Shown here: positions 242 to 5,620 of the stretch, piece after piece
Numbering within the stretch: the first letter of the stretch is position 1
Layout: every line of letters starts with the position of its first letter
DNA from: an uncultured archaeon
Lineage (GTDB): Archaea; Asgardarchaeota; Lokiarchaeia; Sigyniarchaeales; Promethearchaeaceae
Assembly (NCBI GenBank): GCA_964426185.1
Contig: CAYRPF010000093.1
Span: 1 to 5,620 of the forward strand
Reading direction: 5' to 3'
DNA length: 5,620 nucleotides
Translations under genes and position numbers: made by a program
The notes under the pieces: generated by a model
Databases searched by the model: none
What the model was told of the DNA's origin: nothing
What the model saw: the letters and a program-made list of their open reading frames with translations, nothing else

Positions 242-1117
242 TTATTTTTTTTTCGACTTATAGAGCTTATAGGCTTTAAGAATTTCTGGTGGAACTCTCT
301 TGCATTTCGGAAGATGCCTTAACACTGATACCTTGGTTTTTTGGCAGAAGGGGCATATCTGTTTTGCGGTATCTCCAGAGCCGACTTTTTTGATTTTTGC
401 AATTACTTCCTTTTCAAAATCAATGGAACTCGCATCAGTTTCACTATCAAGAGAATTATCATCCAATTCATCGTCTAGATCTTCATCAACATCTTCGATT
501 CCAACGATGTCATCATCTAATTCTTCCAATTCTTCTTCAAGTTCTTCGTCTTCTTCTTCGATTTCATCTTCCTCGAATATCTTTCCATGCTTCTTTCCTA
601 AACCTTCTTCTCGCTCATCTACATAATCCAATTCTTCTTCTGGTACTTTTTCTTCTGCAACCCCAATTACTAAAGCGACATCTTCTTCATCTTCAAACTC
701 TTCTTCTTCATCTTCTTCTTCATCTTCTTCATCTTCTTCGACAATTTTGCGAGCGACCCGTTTTTTCCGTTTCTTTGGAATCTCGATTTCTTCTTCTTCC
801 TCGTCTAAATCGAGATCATCTTCTAATTCTAAAGTTTCATCTCCAAAATCATCGTCAGAGATATCTATATCATCTAGATCGTAATGAAAATCTGGTGCTT
901 CATCCGCAACATATAATTCATCATGGGTTTTTCCATCTCTGCGCTCTCGATATTGTTCACAGACTTGGCAGACTATATTATAAGGGCTCATTACGAACTT
1001 TCGAACATTGCACCGACATAGGGGCACCCCAGTATTGGAGACTTCATTTAATGAAACCAGATGTTCGCAGGCAATAATTCGTACATTTTTTTTGGATTTG
1101 GAGGATTTTTTCGGCAT
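242..1117 (-). CDS. Highly acidic, probably largely disordered protein with an N-terminal Cys/His cluster and a C-terminal C2HC-type zinc finger; function unknown
   Basis: Long open frame. ATG at 1117 (MPKKSSKSKK) is preferred; the alternative GTG is at 1126. N-terminal CEH...CRC...CQVC (959-1069), long D/E tracts, basic PKKRKKRV (755-778), C-terminal CPFC-x9-H-x3-C (302-355) and a Lys-rich end. A TATA-like element lies upstream and T-rich tracts lie downstream. Confidence 0.85.
   Translation of the reverse strand: MPKKSSKSKKNVRIIACEHLVSLNEVSNTGVPLCRCNVRKFVMSPYNIVCQVCEQYRERRDGKTHDELYVADEAPDFHYDLDDIDISDDDFGDETLELEDDLDLDEEEEEIEIPKKRKKRVARKIVEEDEEDEEEDEEEEFEDEEDVALVIGVAEEKVPEEELDYVDEREEGLGKKHGKIFEEDEIEEEDEELEEELEELDDDIVGIEDVDEDLDDELDDNSLDSETDASSIDFEKEVIAKIKKVGSGDTAKQICPFCQKTKVSVLRHLPKCKRVPPEILKAYKLYKSKKK
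680..739 (-). repeat. Imperfect (GAA/GAT)n trinucleotide low-complexity tract encoding poly-Glu/Asp
   Basis: The + strand reads repeated TCTTCTTCA/TCTTCA and encodes EEDEEDEEEDEEEEFEDEED. Similar tracts occur near 520-575 and 788-805. Confidence 0.75.
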
Positions 1118-1126
1118 ATTAAGCAC

Positions 1127-1247
1127 AACTTATCATGGAAATTCAGAATATAAAAATAAGACAAAATCAGATTTTTTCTGCAATATCAAGAAATCTAAAA
1201 CTGCATTTAAAAAAAAATTTTTGGTTCCCCCGCATTTAAGCTAAATT
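1127..1247. promoter_or_regulatory. Divergent promoter region between the acidic-protein gene and the radical SAM gene
   Basis: Minus-strand TTTATATT at 1154-1147, about 30 nt upstream of ATG 1117. Plus-strand TTTAAAAA at 1206-1213 upstream of ATG 1248. No clear Shine-Dalgarno for either gene. Confidence 0.45.
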
Positions 1248-2162
1248 ATGGAAAGATCAGAGTTATATTATGAAGAACCAATTTATCGACCACCTTCAGA
1301 AGGAAAAAAATCCCTATTACTTACCGCCACAGTTGGCTGTTCATTTAATTGCACTTTTTGTATACCTTATCGGCATAAGAAATTTCGTATACGGCCAATT
1401 CAAGAAATAAAAGCAGATATTCGCAAGGCGCGGCGCATTTATGGTGATCATGTCGAGCGGATTTTCCTATTAGACGGGAATGCTTTCGTTATAAAACCCG
1501 CTACTTTGATTGAAATTACCAAAACTTGCTATGAAAATCATCCACGTTTACAACGGATAAGTGCTTATGCTCATGCGAAGGATATTCTGCGAAAATCGGA
1601 TTCAGAATTAAAAAAAATTCGGGAGGCAGGCTTAAACTTAGTTTATATGGGGATAGAGACAGGAGATGATGAATTATTGGAGAAAATTAATAAACATACA
1701 ACCGCAGCAGAACTAACCAAAGCAGCCCAAAAACTGCATAAAGCGGGAATCACACTTTCCGGTACGATAATTTTGGGGTTAGCAGGAGCAGATCCTGAAT
1801 TAAGTCACCGTCATGCCGTAAAAACAGCGAATTTGATCAATGCTATGAATCCACCCTCAAATCAAGATTGGTATATCTCTGCATTAACTCTAATGATTCC
1901 TAAAGGAACACCTATTGCGGTAATGTATGATAGGGAAGAATTTATCCCGCTTTCGCAAAAAGGAATTTTAAATGAACTTCGGACAATAATTGCTCATACT
2001 TCAAATGATCTTCAAGATTGCATTTTTCGTAGCAACCATGCATCGAATTATTTGGTGTTGAAAGGGGTTCTCAGCCAAGATAAAGGAAATTTTCTTCAAA
2101 AAATAGAAATTGCACTGCGCGATCCATCTATTCTTAGACCAGATTTCTTTAGAGGGCTTTAA
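1248..2162 (+). CDS. Radical SAM protein (RPPSE...NHASNY family, COG1032-like); substrate unknown
   Basis: CxxxCxxC [4Fe-4S] motif CSFNCTFC at 1338-1361, preceded by IYRPPSE. Also FLLDGNAF, VYMGIETGDDELLEKINK, IILGLAG and C-terminal FRSNHASNYLVLKG, all typical of this widespread uncharacterised family. There is no room for an N-terminal B12-binding domain. Confidence 0.93.
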   Translation: MERSELYYEEPIYRPPSEGKKSLLLTATVGCSFNCTFCIPYRHKKFRIRPIQEIKADIRKARRIYGDHVERIFLLDGNAFVIKPATLIEITKTCYENHPRLQRISAYAHAKDILRKSDSELKKIREAGLNLVYMGIETGDDELLEKINKHTTAAELTKAAQKLHKAGITLSGTIILGLAGADPELSHRHAVKTANLINAMNPPSNQDWYISALTLMIPKGTPIAVMYDREEFIPLSQKGILNELRTIIAHTSNDLQDCIFRSNHASNYLVLKGVLSQDKGNFLQKIEIALRDPSILRPDFFRGL

Positions 2163-2232: not shown

Positions 2233-2285
2233 TTGCATGAACGTATCTTCTATCAACTCATAAATTAAGCGTGAAGGGAAAAGGG

Positions 2286-3371
2286 ATGAGCACTAAATTT
2301 AAAACAATTTTAGACAAAGAGCGAAAAAAAATCAATAAAAAAATAGAGGAGATTTACCGGGATTTAATCGAACAAGAAGAAGAACCATACCTACGCAAAT
2401 TCCACACTTATTCATACAATTTTTTTAAAAGTCCCGGTCGGCGCATTTTACCGATATGTTTAGTTAATACATTTTTAGGATTATCAAATGATCGTGATAT
2501 TTCAGAATTAATAGAAGATGTTTACAAGATCAGTGTTTCTGTAGAATTATTGCATATTTCCAGCCTTATTATTGATGATTTAGTAGATAATGAAGATCTC
2601 AGACGAGGTCAACCCACATTCCACAAATCAATTTTGGGATTAGAAAATTTATCTGGTAAAAGCAACAGCGATTTCGCAACCGCAGCGGCCATTTACGGGG
2701 GAAACCTCTTATCCTTGATGGGAACGAGAATTATCTTAGACTCTTGTTTTGATACGGCGCGAAAAGAAAAAGTACTTCAGATTTTTCTCACAGGTCTTGA
2801 AGGAATCACACGGGGACATCTGTTGGATGAACATTATAAGTTGAAAGCACTCAAACACATTACTTTGGAAGATTATCTCATTTTGAGTTCTTTGAAGAGG
2901 GGAAAACCCATGGAAACCGCAATTGGAATTGGAGCGATCTTGGGACATGCCAGAAAATCCCAATTAGAACCTCTAATGCAGGCCATGGAAAAAGTTGGAA
3001 TCATTGATCAGTTGATGAACGATGTAAAGGGCAGTTTTGGTGACCCTACTGAAAAATCAATTGATGCCGATATAATAAATGGTCAGTGCACCATTCTTAC
3101 CATTATTGCATATCAATCCGCTTCTCTTGAACAAAAAGCCGTATTAGACTCCACTTTAGGGAATCCTAATGCTACTGGGGATCAAATTGAAGCAGTCAGG
3201 GAAATTTTTCGAAATACTGGTGCCTTGGATTTTGCCAAGATGTATGCGAATAGCTTGAAAAATGACATATTCAATTTACTGGAGAAAGTATATCCTGGTC
3301 TAAAAGCAGAAGTGAGAAGCTTTTTCAATGATCTACTACAATTTCTCACCGATATTCCCGTTTTGAATTAA
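2286..3371 (+). CDS. Polyprenyl synthetase (trans-isoprenyl diphosphate synthase) family protein with degenerate catalytic motifs
   Basis: ELLHISSLIIDDLVDNEDLRRGQPTFH (FARM plus RRG, 2574-2609), AIYGGNLL, and helix-by-helix correspondence to archaeal GGPP-synthase-like proteins. The SARM position reads NDVKG instead of DDxxD. Start is ATG 2286 (purine-rich upstream) or GTG 2271. Confidence 0.9.
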   Translation: MSTKFKTILDKERKKINKKIEEIYRDLIEQEEEPYLRKFHTYSYNFFKSPGRRILPICLVNTFLGLSNDRDISELIEDVYKISVSVELLHISSLIIDDLVDNEDLRRGQPTFHKSILGLENLSGKSNSDFATAAAIYGGNLLSLMGTRIILDSCFDTARKEKVLQIFLTGLEGITRGHLLDEHYKLKALKHITLEDYLILSSLKRGKPMETAIGIGAILGHARKSQLEPLMQAMEKVGIIDQLMNDVKGSFGDPTEKSIDADIINGQCTILTIIAYQSASLEQKAVLDSTLGNPNATGDQIEAVREIFRNTGALDFAKMYANSLKNDIFNLLEKVYPGLKAEVRSFFNDLLQFLTDIPVLN

Positions 3372-3446: not shown

Positions 3447-4166
3447 GTGTCGAGTGCCAACAATTTCATCGAATTCAGAGATCCACTCATAAAACGCAAT
3501 TATCATTTAATTCGTCATTATTTTCTTTTTTTAATCGATATTGGATTAGATTATTTAAAGCGAGAATATATTAACTATAATTCCGAATCTTCTTTTCAAG
3601 AATTTACAGCCAATAATTATTATGACTATATTTTAAAAGATTATTTACGTCGGAAATTAAAAGGACAATTAAAAATTATTCTAAATGCCTCTGTTGAAGC
3701 AGTTGAACAATTTCCAAAAGGAAAAATCGGCGGAGAACCTCTAGATCGTATCGTTAAAAAAAATTATCCAGAATATGCAGAAAACGATATGTCTCTTCTA
3801 CATAGTTCACCCAGCCATATAAATAGAAAAGAGTTGGAAACAATCAGCAGATTAACTTTTCGGGTGGCAATTATTCAAATCACAAGGATAATGCGAAGCA
3901 ATTCGGAAAATGTTAAAACCTACGCAGAATTAATCCGCAGCGTTTATCCAGAAAAAATACAATGTCAAACTTCGCTCCAAGCCATCTTGACAATGATAGA
4001 TAAAATGATCGATTGTTTTGAACGCTCTTTAGACTTAATTGCCATACCCTTTTACAAACCTACTTGGAATTTAAGGGATTTTGCATACATCCGACGAATG
4101 TACGAATTTGCCATTACTGAAGCAAACCATCAAATAGATTTAATCTATCAAGGAGAATTACCATGA
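3447..4166 (+). CDS. Hypothetical, probably all-alpha soluble protein (239 aa)
   Basis: Long ORF filling the gap between neighbours. GTG start preceded by GGGGAG (3432-3437); stop overlaps the next start (ATGA). Amphipathic helical pattern and no recognised motif. Confidence 0.8.
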   Translation: MSSANNFIEFRDPLIKRNYHLIRHYFLFLIDIGLDYLKREYINYNSESSFQEFTANNYYDYILKDYLRRKLKGQLKIILNASVEAVEQFPKGKIGGEPLDRIVKKNYPEYAENDMSLLHSSPSHINRKELETISRLTFRVAIIQITRIMRSNSENVKTYAELIRSVYPEKIQCQTSLQAILTMIDKMIDCFERSLDLIAIPFYKPTWNLRDFAYIRRMYEFAITEANHQIDLIYQGELP

Positions 4167-5050
4167 AAAAATATAAAATGCCAAAAGTTAAGCCAGAAAT
4201 TCGTAATGCCATGAAATCGATCGGCTTTACAGATTACTTTATCAATCTTTTTGTCACTTTACTAAATTGCGGAGAAATGAATGCACACGAATTAAGCGAT
4301 ATTACACAAGTCCCCTATTCGCGCATCTACGAAATCTTAAATGAAATGGTTGCAAAAAAAATAATTACTAAAATTGAAGGACGACCCAGCACTTTTATTG
4401 CCAACGATCCCAGAGATGTCTTTACATACATAAAACACCAGCAAGAACAAAGTTTCAATGAAAATATCAATTCATCTCTCCCCTTCCTGAAGCAGCTTTT
4501 TGGTGAAAAACGCCCGACCAAACAAGTCCAATTTACTTTATTAGAAGGGGACAAAGCTAGTAGGGATCATCTCAGAAATTTGATTAATGCGACCTCACAT
4601 AAATTACAAGCAGCCATCAAAGATGTAGCCGAAGTTTACCCCATTATTCGTCATAATTTGGATTTTCTTAGAACCAAAGGAGTAGAAACGTTTATTGTAA
4701 TAGAATCACAATTTGCAAATGAAGAATTCATCCCTATCTTGGAAAATCACTGCAAAATTATGTATATCCCTCATATCTTTCAAACATTGTTTATTTCAGA
4801 TGATTCTGTGGCATTTCAAACCGCCAAAGGACGTTTCAACATAGCTAATCCAAAAAAGGAAGGTTATTCTATTTTTAGTAGCACTGACATGAAATATATC
4901 ATATATATTCAGCAGATTTTTCAAAATATTTGGGAACTTGGTATCCCAAGAAGCAAATTGAAGATTTCTTCTAAAAATCAGAAACATCCTCGAAAAGTTC
5001 CTCAAAAAGAATCTTTAATTCGTAAAAGTAAGGAAACAACATCAAAGTAG
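4163..5050 (+). CDS. TrmB-family transcriptional regulator
   Basis: N-terminal winged HTH GFTDYFINLFVTLLNCGEMNAHELSDITQVPYSRIYEILNEMVAKKIITKIEGRPSTFIANDP, a linker helix, and a C-terminal effector-like domain ending FQNIWELGIP. AGGAG at 4151-4155 lies upstream of the ATG. Confidence 0.92.
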   Translation: MKKYKMPKVKPEIRNAMKSIGFTDYFINLFVTLLNCGEMNAHELSDITQVPYSRIYEILNEMVAKKIITKIEGRPSTFIANDPRDVFTYIKHQQEQSFNENINSSLPFLKQLFGEKRPTKQVQFTLLEGDKASRDHLRNLINATSHKLQAAIKDVAEVYPIIRHNLDFLRTKGVETFIVIESQFANEEFIPILENHCKIMYIPHIFQTLFISDDSVAFQTAKGRFNIANPKKEGYSIFSSTDMKYIIYIQQIFQNIWELGIPRSKLKISSKNQKHPRKVPQKESLIRKSKETTSK

Positions 5051-5620
5051 CTGAATTCCTCGCTTATTATAGGGTGGTTCATCCAAAATTAGTTGAACTA
5101 TTGCTTTAAAAATAATCTCGGTATTATAACCAGTTTTTGCGGAAGTTTCAAATGCTTTCGCAGCACCAATCTTACAACGAACTTCATCCACTACACCATC
5201 GTCAAATTTTAAGTCGGGATTAACAATATCATATTTGGCACCAACCAGAATTGAAGGAATCAGCTCAGTATTTGCTTGAACCAAAGGTAACCATGTCTCC
5301 ACAAGATGAACTAAACTGTGAAAAGCCGTCATGTCGTAAACATATATTACCCCATTCGCACCTAGAATAAATTGAGAGAGAAGCGGGCGAAAACGTTCTT
5401 GACCTCCAAAATCCCAAATTGAGAGCCCCACCCCAATTTTTTCACCTTTTTCTTTGGCAGGAAGCGAATAATTGTTGAAGCTCAATCCGATGGTCAGTTT
5501 AGTGTCAAGAAATTCGGAATAACAAAACCTATTAGTTAGACAAGTTTTTCCCACTCCCCCGTCTCCAACGAGTATTATTTTAAACTGGTAACGAATGTTA
5601 TCTGAGATTTGAAACGACAT
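5042..5620 (-). CDS. Rab-like small GTPase (Ras superfamily, Asgard type)
   Basis: G1 GDGGVGKT (5543-5566), G2 TIGLSF, G3 WDFGGQERF (5390-5416), G4 GAKYD (5228-5242), G5 ETSAK. The ATG sits at the window edge, so an N-terminal extension cannot be excluded. Confidence 0.95.
   Translation of the reverse strand: MSFQISDNIRYQFKIILVGDGGVGKTCLTNRFCYSEFLDTKLTIGLSFNNYSLPAKEKGEKIGVGLSIWDFGGQERFRPLLSQFILGANGVIYVYDMTAFHSLVHLVETWLPLVQANTELIPSILVGAKYDIVNPDLKFDDGVVDEVRCKIGAAKAFETSAKTGYNTEIIFKAIVQLILDEPPYNKRGIQLL

Follow-up and report, generated by a model that had tools for sequence, protein, structure and literature searches.

An acidic protein restricted to one Lokiarchaeal order, built on a predicted Cys4 domain and encoded close to one radical SAM gene

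The window (the whole stretch of 5,620 nucleotides that was analysed) carries on its minus strand an open reading frame for an acidic protein (242..1117; ATG start, stop-free translation of 291 amino acids, TAA stop at 242–244, and an in-frame GTG at 1126, three codons upstream of the ATG). A divergent intergenic region of 130 bp (1118..1247), common to both genes, separates its start codon from the start of a plus-strand gene (1248..2162) for a radical SAM enzyme of 304 amino acids, recognised by its CX3CX2C motif, by profile and by comparison of loci. The acidic protein contains 96 Asp or Glu residues (33%), 43 Lys or Arg, eight Cys and five His, and has a net charge of −53. Our composition counts agree with the layout described in the initial annotation: a basic N-terminal tail (six K/R within residues 1–15), a Cys/His cluster (positions 17, 19, 34, 36, 50 and 53), a D/E-rich linker interrupted by basic patches (residues 113–125 and 175–179), a C2HC finger and a basic C-terminal tail. 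The linker of about 175 residues is 51% D/E (89 D/E against 14 K/R in residues 61–235), and the count of 26 acidic residues in 48 that had been given for its first tract is recovered in segments that begin at residue 65 or 66. The acidic tracts are partly encoded by imperfect GAA/GAT repeats, and because of these the plus strand contains long Ser/Leu-rich frames overlapping the coding sequence (300–626 and 397–1077), which mirror the GAA/GAT-rich coding strand and are read as artefacts. The acidic two-module ORF itself is a real conserved gene, and more than a chance reading frame, with orthologues in many related genomes.

The first 12 residues form a Lys-rich tail on composition (1082..1117, on the minus strand like all parts of the protein given below), with 61% mean identity to relatives, and are followed by an N module (residues 13–57; 947..1081) which, as far as the alignments indicate, is a Cys4 metal module of a new family. 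Only C17, L33, C36, R39, C50 and C53 are invariant over 48 aligned N modules, giving a Cys4 spacing of C-x18-C-x13-C-x2-C, and in the same set C34 is replaced by A, I, F or Y and H19 by Y, F, N or Q. Since these two positions vary, the metal site would be a Cys4 site rather than a Cys/His one; the cluster noticed earlier is present, and its composition has to be revised. A conserved segment follows (residues 58–80; 878..946; 47% identity), with a short predicted helix and an acidic-aromatic motif. AlphaFold models of the N module are of low confidence (pLDDT 57–71 within the full-length model, 52 for the module by itself), and the Protein Atlas contains no feature matches for it. Elf1/ELOF1 shares the order of parts seen at the N terminus of the acidic protein (basic tail, zinc ribbon, acidic tail); this reading was rejected, with an hhalign probability of 1.5%, no Pfam match to the Elf1 family model (PF05129) in the acidic protein, and a canonical Elf1 on another contig of the source genome (62.6 bits). 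A reading as a Dph3/Kti11 CSL-type CxC...CxxC electron donor to a radical SAM enzyme was likewise rejected because C34, being A, I, F or Y in many members, does not complete the required ligand set; there was also no zf-CSL Pfam match in the acidic protein.

The linker consists of three acidic tracts separated by a basic patch and a conserved island, and regional conservation is given here as mean identity to the window protein over 20 full-length relatives. Tract 1 (residues 81–112; 782..877; 32% identity, 21% gaps) includes a conserved SDDDF motif and is followed by a K/R patch (residues 113–125; 743..781) whose position is kept and whose sequence is not, with 4–11 K/R per 12 residues over the family. 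Tract 2 (residues 126–147; 677..742), delimited by composition, repeats and alignment, contains imperfect GAA/GAT repeats. The island (residues 148–180; 578..676; 62% identity, 4% gaps) carries VIG..KE and DY.DE.EEGLGKKHG motifs, and tract 3 (residues 181–229; 431..577; 28% identity, 26% gaps) includes a helix predicted with moderate confidence at residues 183–205. Thus the three tracts, with 28–37% identity and 7–26% gaps, contrast with the C module (76%), the island (62%) and the N module (58%), and the alignments show that the acidic tracts are conserved in composition and not in sequence, with length drifting too. The initial annotation would have given up its reading if the acidic linker were not conserved in orthologues; we find that composition and one island are kept and that sequence and length are not. 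D/E content is 36–53% in the linkers of one-finger relatives (mostly from the window protein's own family), 26–34% in a two-finger family and 30–41% in winged-helix variants, where K/R content is far higher. Net charge ranges from −84 to +6 overall; it lies between −3 and −33 for the two-finger family and between −22 and +6 for the winged-helix variants. Extreme acidity is specific to the window protein's own family.

The C module (residues 230–279; 281..430; 76% identity) is modelled with high confidence as a helix, two strands, a beta-beta-alpha C2HC finger and a helix (pLDDT about 88–95 over residues 231–290), and on composition and the model it leads into a basic C-terminal helix and tail (residues 280–291; 245..280). 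The finger core is C255-x2-C258-x9-H268-x3-C272 (302..355), in which C, P, C, H and C are invariant across 37 family fingers, and the model predicts a basic finger of the C2H2-like type. It differs from C2H2 fingers in that the last ligand is Cys and not His, and the spacer is x9 and not the usual x12. The window protein's finger reached no curated family in the searches, for which the Pfam copy lacked PF28519. Within the 37 fingers, zf-C2HC_2 (PF13913) was matched by 21 at E ≤ 1 (best E 5.9e-5; curated cut-off 27 bits), zf-C2H2_4 by 19 and zf-Di19 by 16, all below cut-off; the window finger is not one of the 21, and whole relatives score 10–14 bits against zf-C2HC_2. Profile matches to PDB entries were weak and included designed C2H2 fingers, the FAAP20 UBZ and Ros. 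Among precomputed matches, PF28519 (MTNAP1_ZnF) is recorded for relatives P0027 and P0030 and for 87% of a 107-member Promethearchaeota Atlas cluster of two-finger relatives, and not for the window protein or its close orthologues. We note that one f1 orthologue of 370 amino acids (L019, 2689–3801, in genome G008) has a C-terminal Lys-rich stretch and about 90 extra residues past the finger.

All orthologues, whether close or distant, are annotated as hypothetical proteins of Lokiarchaeota/Promethearchaeota, including those of two cultured species, P. syntrophicum (DSAG12_01428) and L. ossiferum (NEF87_003782), which bears out the earlier description of an Asgard protein. Of 41 related genomes, 35 have a full-length or N-terminal orthologue, among them all 23 high-quality genomes, with one match each (reported as two pieces in two of the 35), and no paralogues of the N or C module were found within the source genome, where the C2HC finger core is also the sole copy. 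The phyletic profile across the Asgard archaea that the initial annotation had proposed gave a clear pattern: the N-module profile matched 4/4 genomes of family f1 and 52/55 of family f3, two families of one Lokiarchaeal order, and had no match in the 191 genomes that represent 26 other Asgard families in a sample spanning the phylum. Variants of the gene were found in a further two families (4/4 f4 genomes and the single f2 genome). An exhaustive search of 1.84 billion representative proteins with the N-module profile returned only 34 relatives, and a word-index search with the C module returned the protein's own family alone. The gene is therefore single copy per genome across four families of one Lokiarchaeal order, and the protein is a recent innovation of that order, based on a new Cys4 domain. 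Neither the acidic protein nor its terminal domains reached a described family, of unrelated function or otherwise, among the models searched, in keeping with the earlier inability to assign it; there were no matches in the defence and phage libraries, and a paper search by locus tag found none on the family in the literature searched. Within that literature the family is undescribed, and it belongs to an already-known general kind, zinc-finger proteins with an acidic disordered region.

Comparison across families shows that the end of the protein is interchangeable. The f3 proteins are shorter (about 230 amino acids) and have two C2HC fingers, and each f4 genome has one gene in which a winged helix replaces the finger; this winged helix scores above the Pfam cut-offs of B-block_TFIIIC and RPA_C and resembles those of Lrs14, MarR and RPC39. 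Relatives from Bathyarchaeia have a winged helix, then a coiled coil, then the Cys4 module. Like the window protein, the winged-helix variants occur once per genome and have a charged linker, and their Cys4 module is homologous to its own (E 1e-9 to 1e-4 in the exhaustive search). They differ in having an Lrs14/MarR/RPC6-type winged helix for the finger, a more basic linker and different neighbours (FolD in f4, and mch and probable fwd genes in Bathyarchaeia, without a radical SAM gene directly beside them). Therefore, with two fingers in one family and a winged helix in a sister family, the end module is interchangeable and of a DNA-binding type, and in these comparisons the Cys4 module is the constant part and the variable part always a DNA-binding-type module. 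It should be noted that a relationship of the Cys4 plus winged-helix forms to TFE-beta/Rpc34, which joins a winged helix to a C-terminal Cys4 Fe-S domain, is not supported, as only the winged-helix part matches, below cut-off. There was no match to this family (PF05158) in the window protein, and none was found at E ≤ 0.01 in five genomes of the order (G000, G001, G016, G022 and G030); a Sulfolobus acidocaldarius control was positive. The nucleic-acid-associated role put forward at the outset is accordingly plausible, given a basic C2H2-like finger that is replaced in a sister family by a winged helix.

An RNA-directed role would make the protein an acidic ribosome-biogenesis factor of the nucleolin or assembly-factor type, with its basic tails and finger binding rRNA. 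Its Lys-rich tails would suit this, a YlqF-type GTPase gene lies between the variant and the radical SAM gene in f4, and the C module is weakly similar to the eL43 zinc knuckle (E 0.01–0.02, and E 0.029 for the eL43 profile on one relative's C module). However, the eL43 matches are marginal and cover only the first K-rich CPFC knuckle, and on this ground we rejected the relationship; the ligands here are C2HC and not C4. There is also no RNA-binding domain, no ribosomal genes lie nearby in f1 or f3, and the winged-helix swap points to DNA over RNA, so that we regard this reading as very unlikely.

The spacing of the window finger is also that of the CCHC finger of vertebrate MTNAP1 (C17orf80), whose N-terminal finger is C-x2-C-x9-H-x3-C (PMC10445727). 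MTNAP1 is a largely disordered protein that associates with mitochondrial nucleoids, is found only in jawed vertebrates, and has a C-terminal ATP synthase subunit f-like domain and a membrane helix (PMC10445727). Both proteins thus place a terminal finger on a largely disordered chain, but the finger is at the N terminus of MTNAP1 and in the C-terminal part of the acidic protein, and MTNAP1 lacks the Cys4 module and a comparable acidic linker. The similarity covers only about 20 residues and may be convergent.

The acidic tracts invite a different comparison, as K/R-interrupted D/E tracts with predicted disorder are also found in nucleoplasmin/NPM1, NAP1, the HMGB1 tail and prothymosin alpha. 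The acidic protein shares no domain with these, nor a pentamer or NAP fold, and the resemblance is one of layout and not of family. The initial annotation had proposed a candidate histone chaperone. This would be a chaperone or buffer for histones or other basic proteins, in which aromatic-anchored acidic tracts bind histone dimers and zinc modules tether the complex to DNA. The D/E-rich linker, the conserved acidic-aromatic motifs SDDDF, DY.DE and IDFE, a layout recalling nucleoplasmin and NAP1-type tails, and the eight histone-fold proteins encoded in the source genome are all consistent with this. However, we found no histone-chaperone domain or fold (nucleoplasmin, NAP1/SET, ASF1 or FACT-type) by sequence or fold comparison, and no linkage of the gene to any of the eight histone-fold genes. 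The tracts drift in sequence and length, and sister families are far less acidic. The protein is confined to one order, whereas histones are held to occur widely among Asgard archaea. The start codons of the f3 orthologues also speak against high abundance. At the start position before the PRRK motif, ATT was found eight times, ATA eight times and ATG three times (n = 19; noted for loci L014, L016, L017, L022–L027, L029, L031–L035 and L037), 5–8 nt past a GGTGAT Shine-Dalgarno-like (ribosome-binding) box. An in-frame stop lies upstream in at least six f3 loci (by 2–3 codons in five and by 15 in one), so that any protein including the invariant C17 would have to begin at a non-canonical codon, which suggests near-cognate initiation. 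We conclude that nothing found singles out histones for the acidic protein, and a chaperone function now seems quite unlikely.

The most consistent feature of the gene outside its own coding sequence is its genomic tie to one radical SAM gene. In f1 the two genes are divergent in five genera, convergent in two, and 1.6–2.3 kb apart in two genomes, and the radical SAM gene was absent from the 1.5–3 kb flanks examined in f1 genomes G005, G007 and G013. In f2 the enzyme gene comes first on the same strand as the homologue. In f3 the finger gene comes first on the same strand; of 17 loci read in detail, 16 have gaps of 6–76 bp and one has a 4-nt overlap. Adjacency in an operon-like arrangement was found in 48/48 assessable f3 genomes among the matches listed, with coordinates paired (four genomes were left out on account of contig ends or listing). 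In f4 the radical SAM gene is 2–4 kb away in three of the four genomes, with the YlqF-type GTPase and FolD genes between, and there is none in the neighbourhood of the fourth. No FolD or YlqF-type GTPase gene lies beside the gene in f1 and f3, where other neighbours vary within both families. This adjacency to one radical SAM gene across the order is newly found here. In the window, an A/T palindrome-like box, CATTTA(9)T(5)GG (1204..1224, plus strand), ends 23 nt before the radical SAM ATG, and each of the seven divergent loci compared (the window, L003, L004, L008, L010, L011 and L019) has a CATTTA(8–9)T(4–6)GG-like box about 20–25 nt ahead of the radical SAM start codon; the 1204–1224 box probably serves as a strong BRE/TATA promoter. 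In f3 a related A7-TTAAATTTTAAG box stands upstream of the gene pair.

Matches of the enzyme are limited to the generic radical SAM core, with a weak similarity to B12-type enzymes but no B12 domain; the Protein Atlas gives generic names only, and the phage library a weak generic PHROG radical SAM match. We note that its motif is CX3CX2C (GCSFNCTFC) and that of orthologues in other Asgard families (L044–L058) is CX4CX2C (GCSHNACTFC), the Cys motif being preceded in the enzyme here and in the 45–50% identical orthologues by the same RPPSEA.SL motif.

The main rival to our preferred reading, that of a regulator or adaptor, is a direct partnership in which the protein is an accessory subunit, targeting factor, electron-transfer partner or substrate of the adjacent enzyme, with the Cys4 module or the fingers binding either the enzyme or the macromolecule it acts upon, and both proteins working together on DNA, RNA or protein. 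The tight operon-like pairing in f3 argues for this, as does the fact that adjacency outlasts three changes of orientation in f1 and f2, whereas the remaining neighbours differ. There is also an analogy in eukaryotes, where radical SAM enzymes are served by small acidic-tailed Cys4 proteins such as Dph3/Kti11. However, the Dph3-like CxC knuckle is not conserved, the enzyme is assignable only to the generic core, radical SAM orthologues of 45–50% identity are common in other Asgard families without a Cys4/finger partner, and the f4 and bathyarchaeal Cys4 members are not adjacent to a radical SAM gene. We consider a direct partnership rather unlikely.

We tentatively favour an order-specific, single-copy, modular regulator or adaptor associated with DNA (or nucleic acid), a function that seems quite possible in view of the interchangeable DNA-binding-type end, the basic arms, the single copy and the persistent nearness to one gene. 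The ATT or ATA starts of 16/19 f3 orthologues also fit this reading, and such weak starts would suit a low-abundance regulator. Single fingers with basic arms bind DNA in the GAGA factor and Ros/MucR, and the basic flanks of the finger here resemble those of these known binders. The basic finger, with the flanking Lys-rich helix and tails, would attach the protein to DNA. The acidic tracts might then fold back onto the basic parts, competing within the molecule or mimicking DNA in the manner of the HMGB1 tail, or might alternatively hold a basic partner protein; the acidic linker probably does one or the other, competing with nucleic acid for the basic modules or holding such a partner. The invariant Cys4 module would carry the family-specific function, which could be partner binding or metal or redox sensing, and the likeliest site of action would be the adjacent radical SAM locus, with the protein as a local regulator or a recruited accessory.

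Several observations stand against the regulator or adaptor reading. A lone finger could just as well bind protein, RNA or ubiquitin, as the weak FAAP20 UBZ matches illustrate, and a 170-residue acidic linker is unusual in an archaeal local regulator. Convergent gene pairs in two genera mean that a shared-promoter model does not fit; the radical SAM gene is distant or absent in f4 and was not seen in the flanks of the three f1 genomes mentioned above, and other Asgard families have orthologues of it that lack a partner of this kind beside them. The N module, moreover, has neither a confident model (pLDDT 52) nor a fold match. A further reading is that the Cys4/finger protein and the enzyme form an order-specific two-component system, in which a DNA- or chromatin-bound charged adaptor recruits or gates the enzyme, or is itself modified by it. 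We think this unlikely; if true, the prokaryotes most closely related to eukaryotes would have a hitherto unknown way of modifying nucleic acid or a chromatin component that depends on radical SAM chemistry.

Lokiarchaeal genomes are intensively searched for forerunners of eukaryotic chromatin and nuclear biology, and the acidic protein has much that looks eukaryote-like, including acidic tracts, an NLS-like basic patch and a CCHC finger with vertebrate MTNAP1 spacing. Of the eukaryote-like layout claimed earlier, the features of layout are present, but no chaperone homology or fold match was found that would indicate ancestry, and the eukaryote-like look is one of layout and not of ancestry. 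This case guards against over-reading eukaryote-like acidic proteins as 'proto-chaperones', and leaves a defined subject for tests in two Asgard archaea that are in culture, namely a modular factor present in one copy, with exchangeable ends of DNA-binding type and a conserved radical SAM neighbour.

The wider surroundings of both genes vary between lineages. The winged-helix variant of f4 directly follows FolD, and on a Bathyarchaeota contig (L072; JAGTQN010000078.1) a protein of 179 amino acids with a winged helix, coiled coil and Cys4 module (792–1331) is encoded between the methenyl-H4MPT cyclohydrolase gene mch and a run of fwd-like genes, resembling those for formylmethanofuran dehydrogenase subunits (the latter read by eye), so that there may be a C1-metabolism theme for the winged-helix branch. 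Radical SAM orthologues of two other Asgard families (L046 and L053, in f11 and f22) are near MfnE-like and MfnB-like (methanofuran biosynthesis) genes and NadX. A C1-carrier or methanofuran theme for the radical SAM pair is nonetheless weakened, because four f1 genomes (G000, G001, G010 and G011) keep both genes and MfnB and MfnE were not found in them. In another Asgard family, f10 (L048, L050, L055 and L058), the radical SAM orthologue is beside a gene for a Ras-like small GTPase on the opposite strand, and a Ras-like GTPase is also encoded in the window at 5042–5620. Downstream of the radical SAM gene, and on the same strand, the window contains polyprenyl-synthase-like, orphan helical and TrmB-like genes (2271–3371 and 3447–5050); this run follows the radical SAM gene only in genera g1, g5 and g6, and in f3 the closest polyprenyl-synthase-like gene, a more distant one, is 4–6 kb away.
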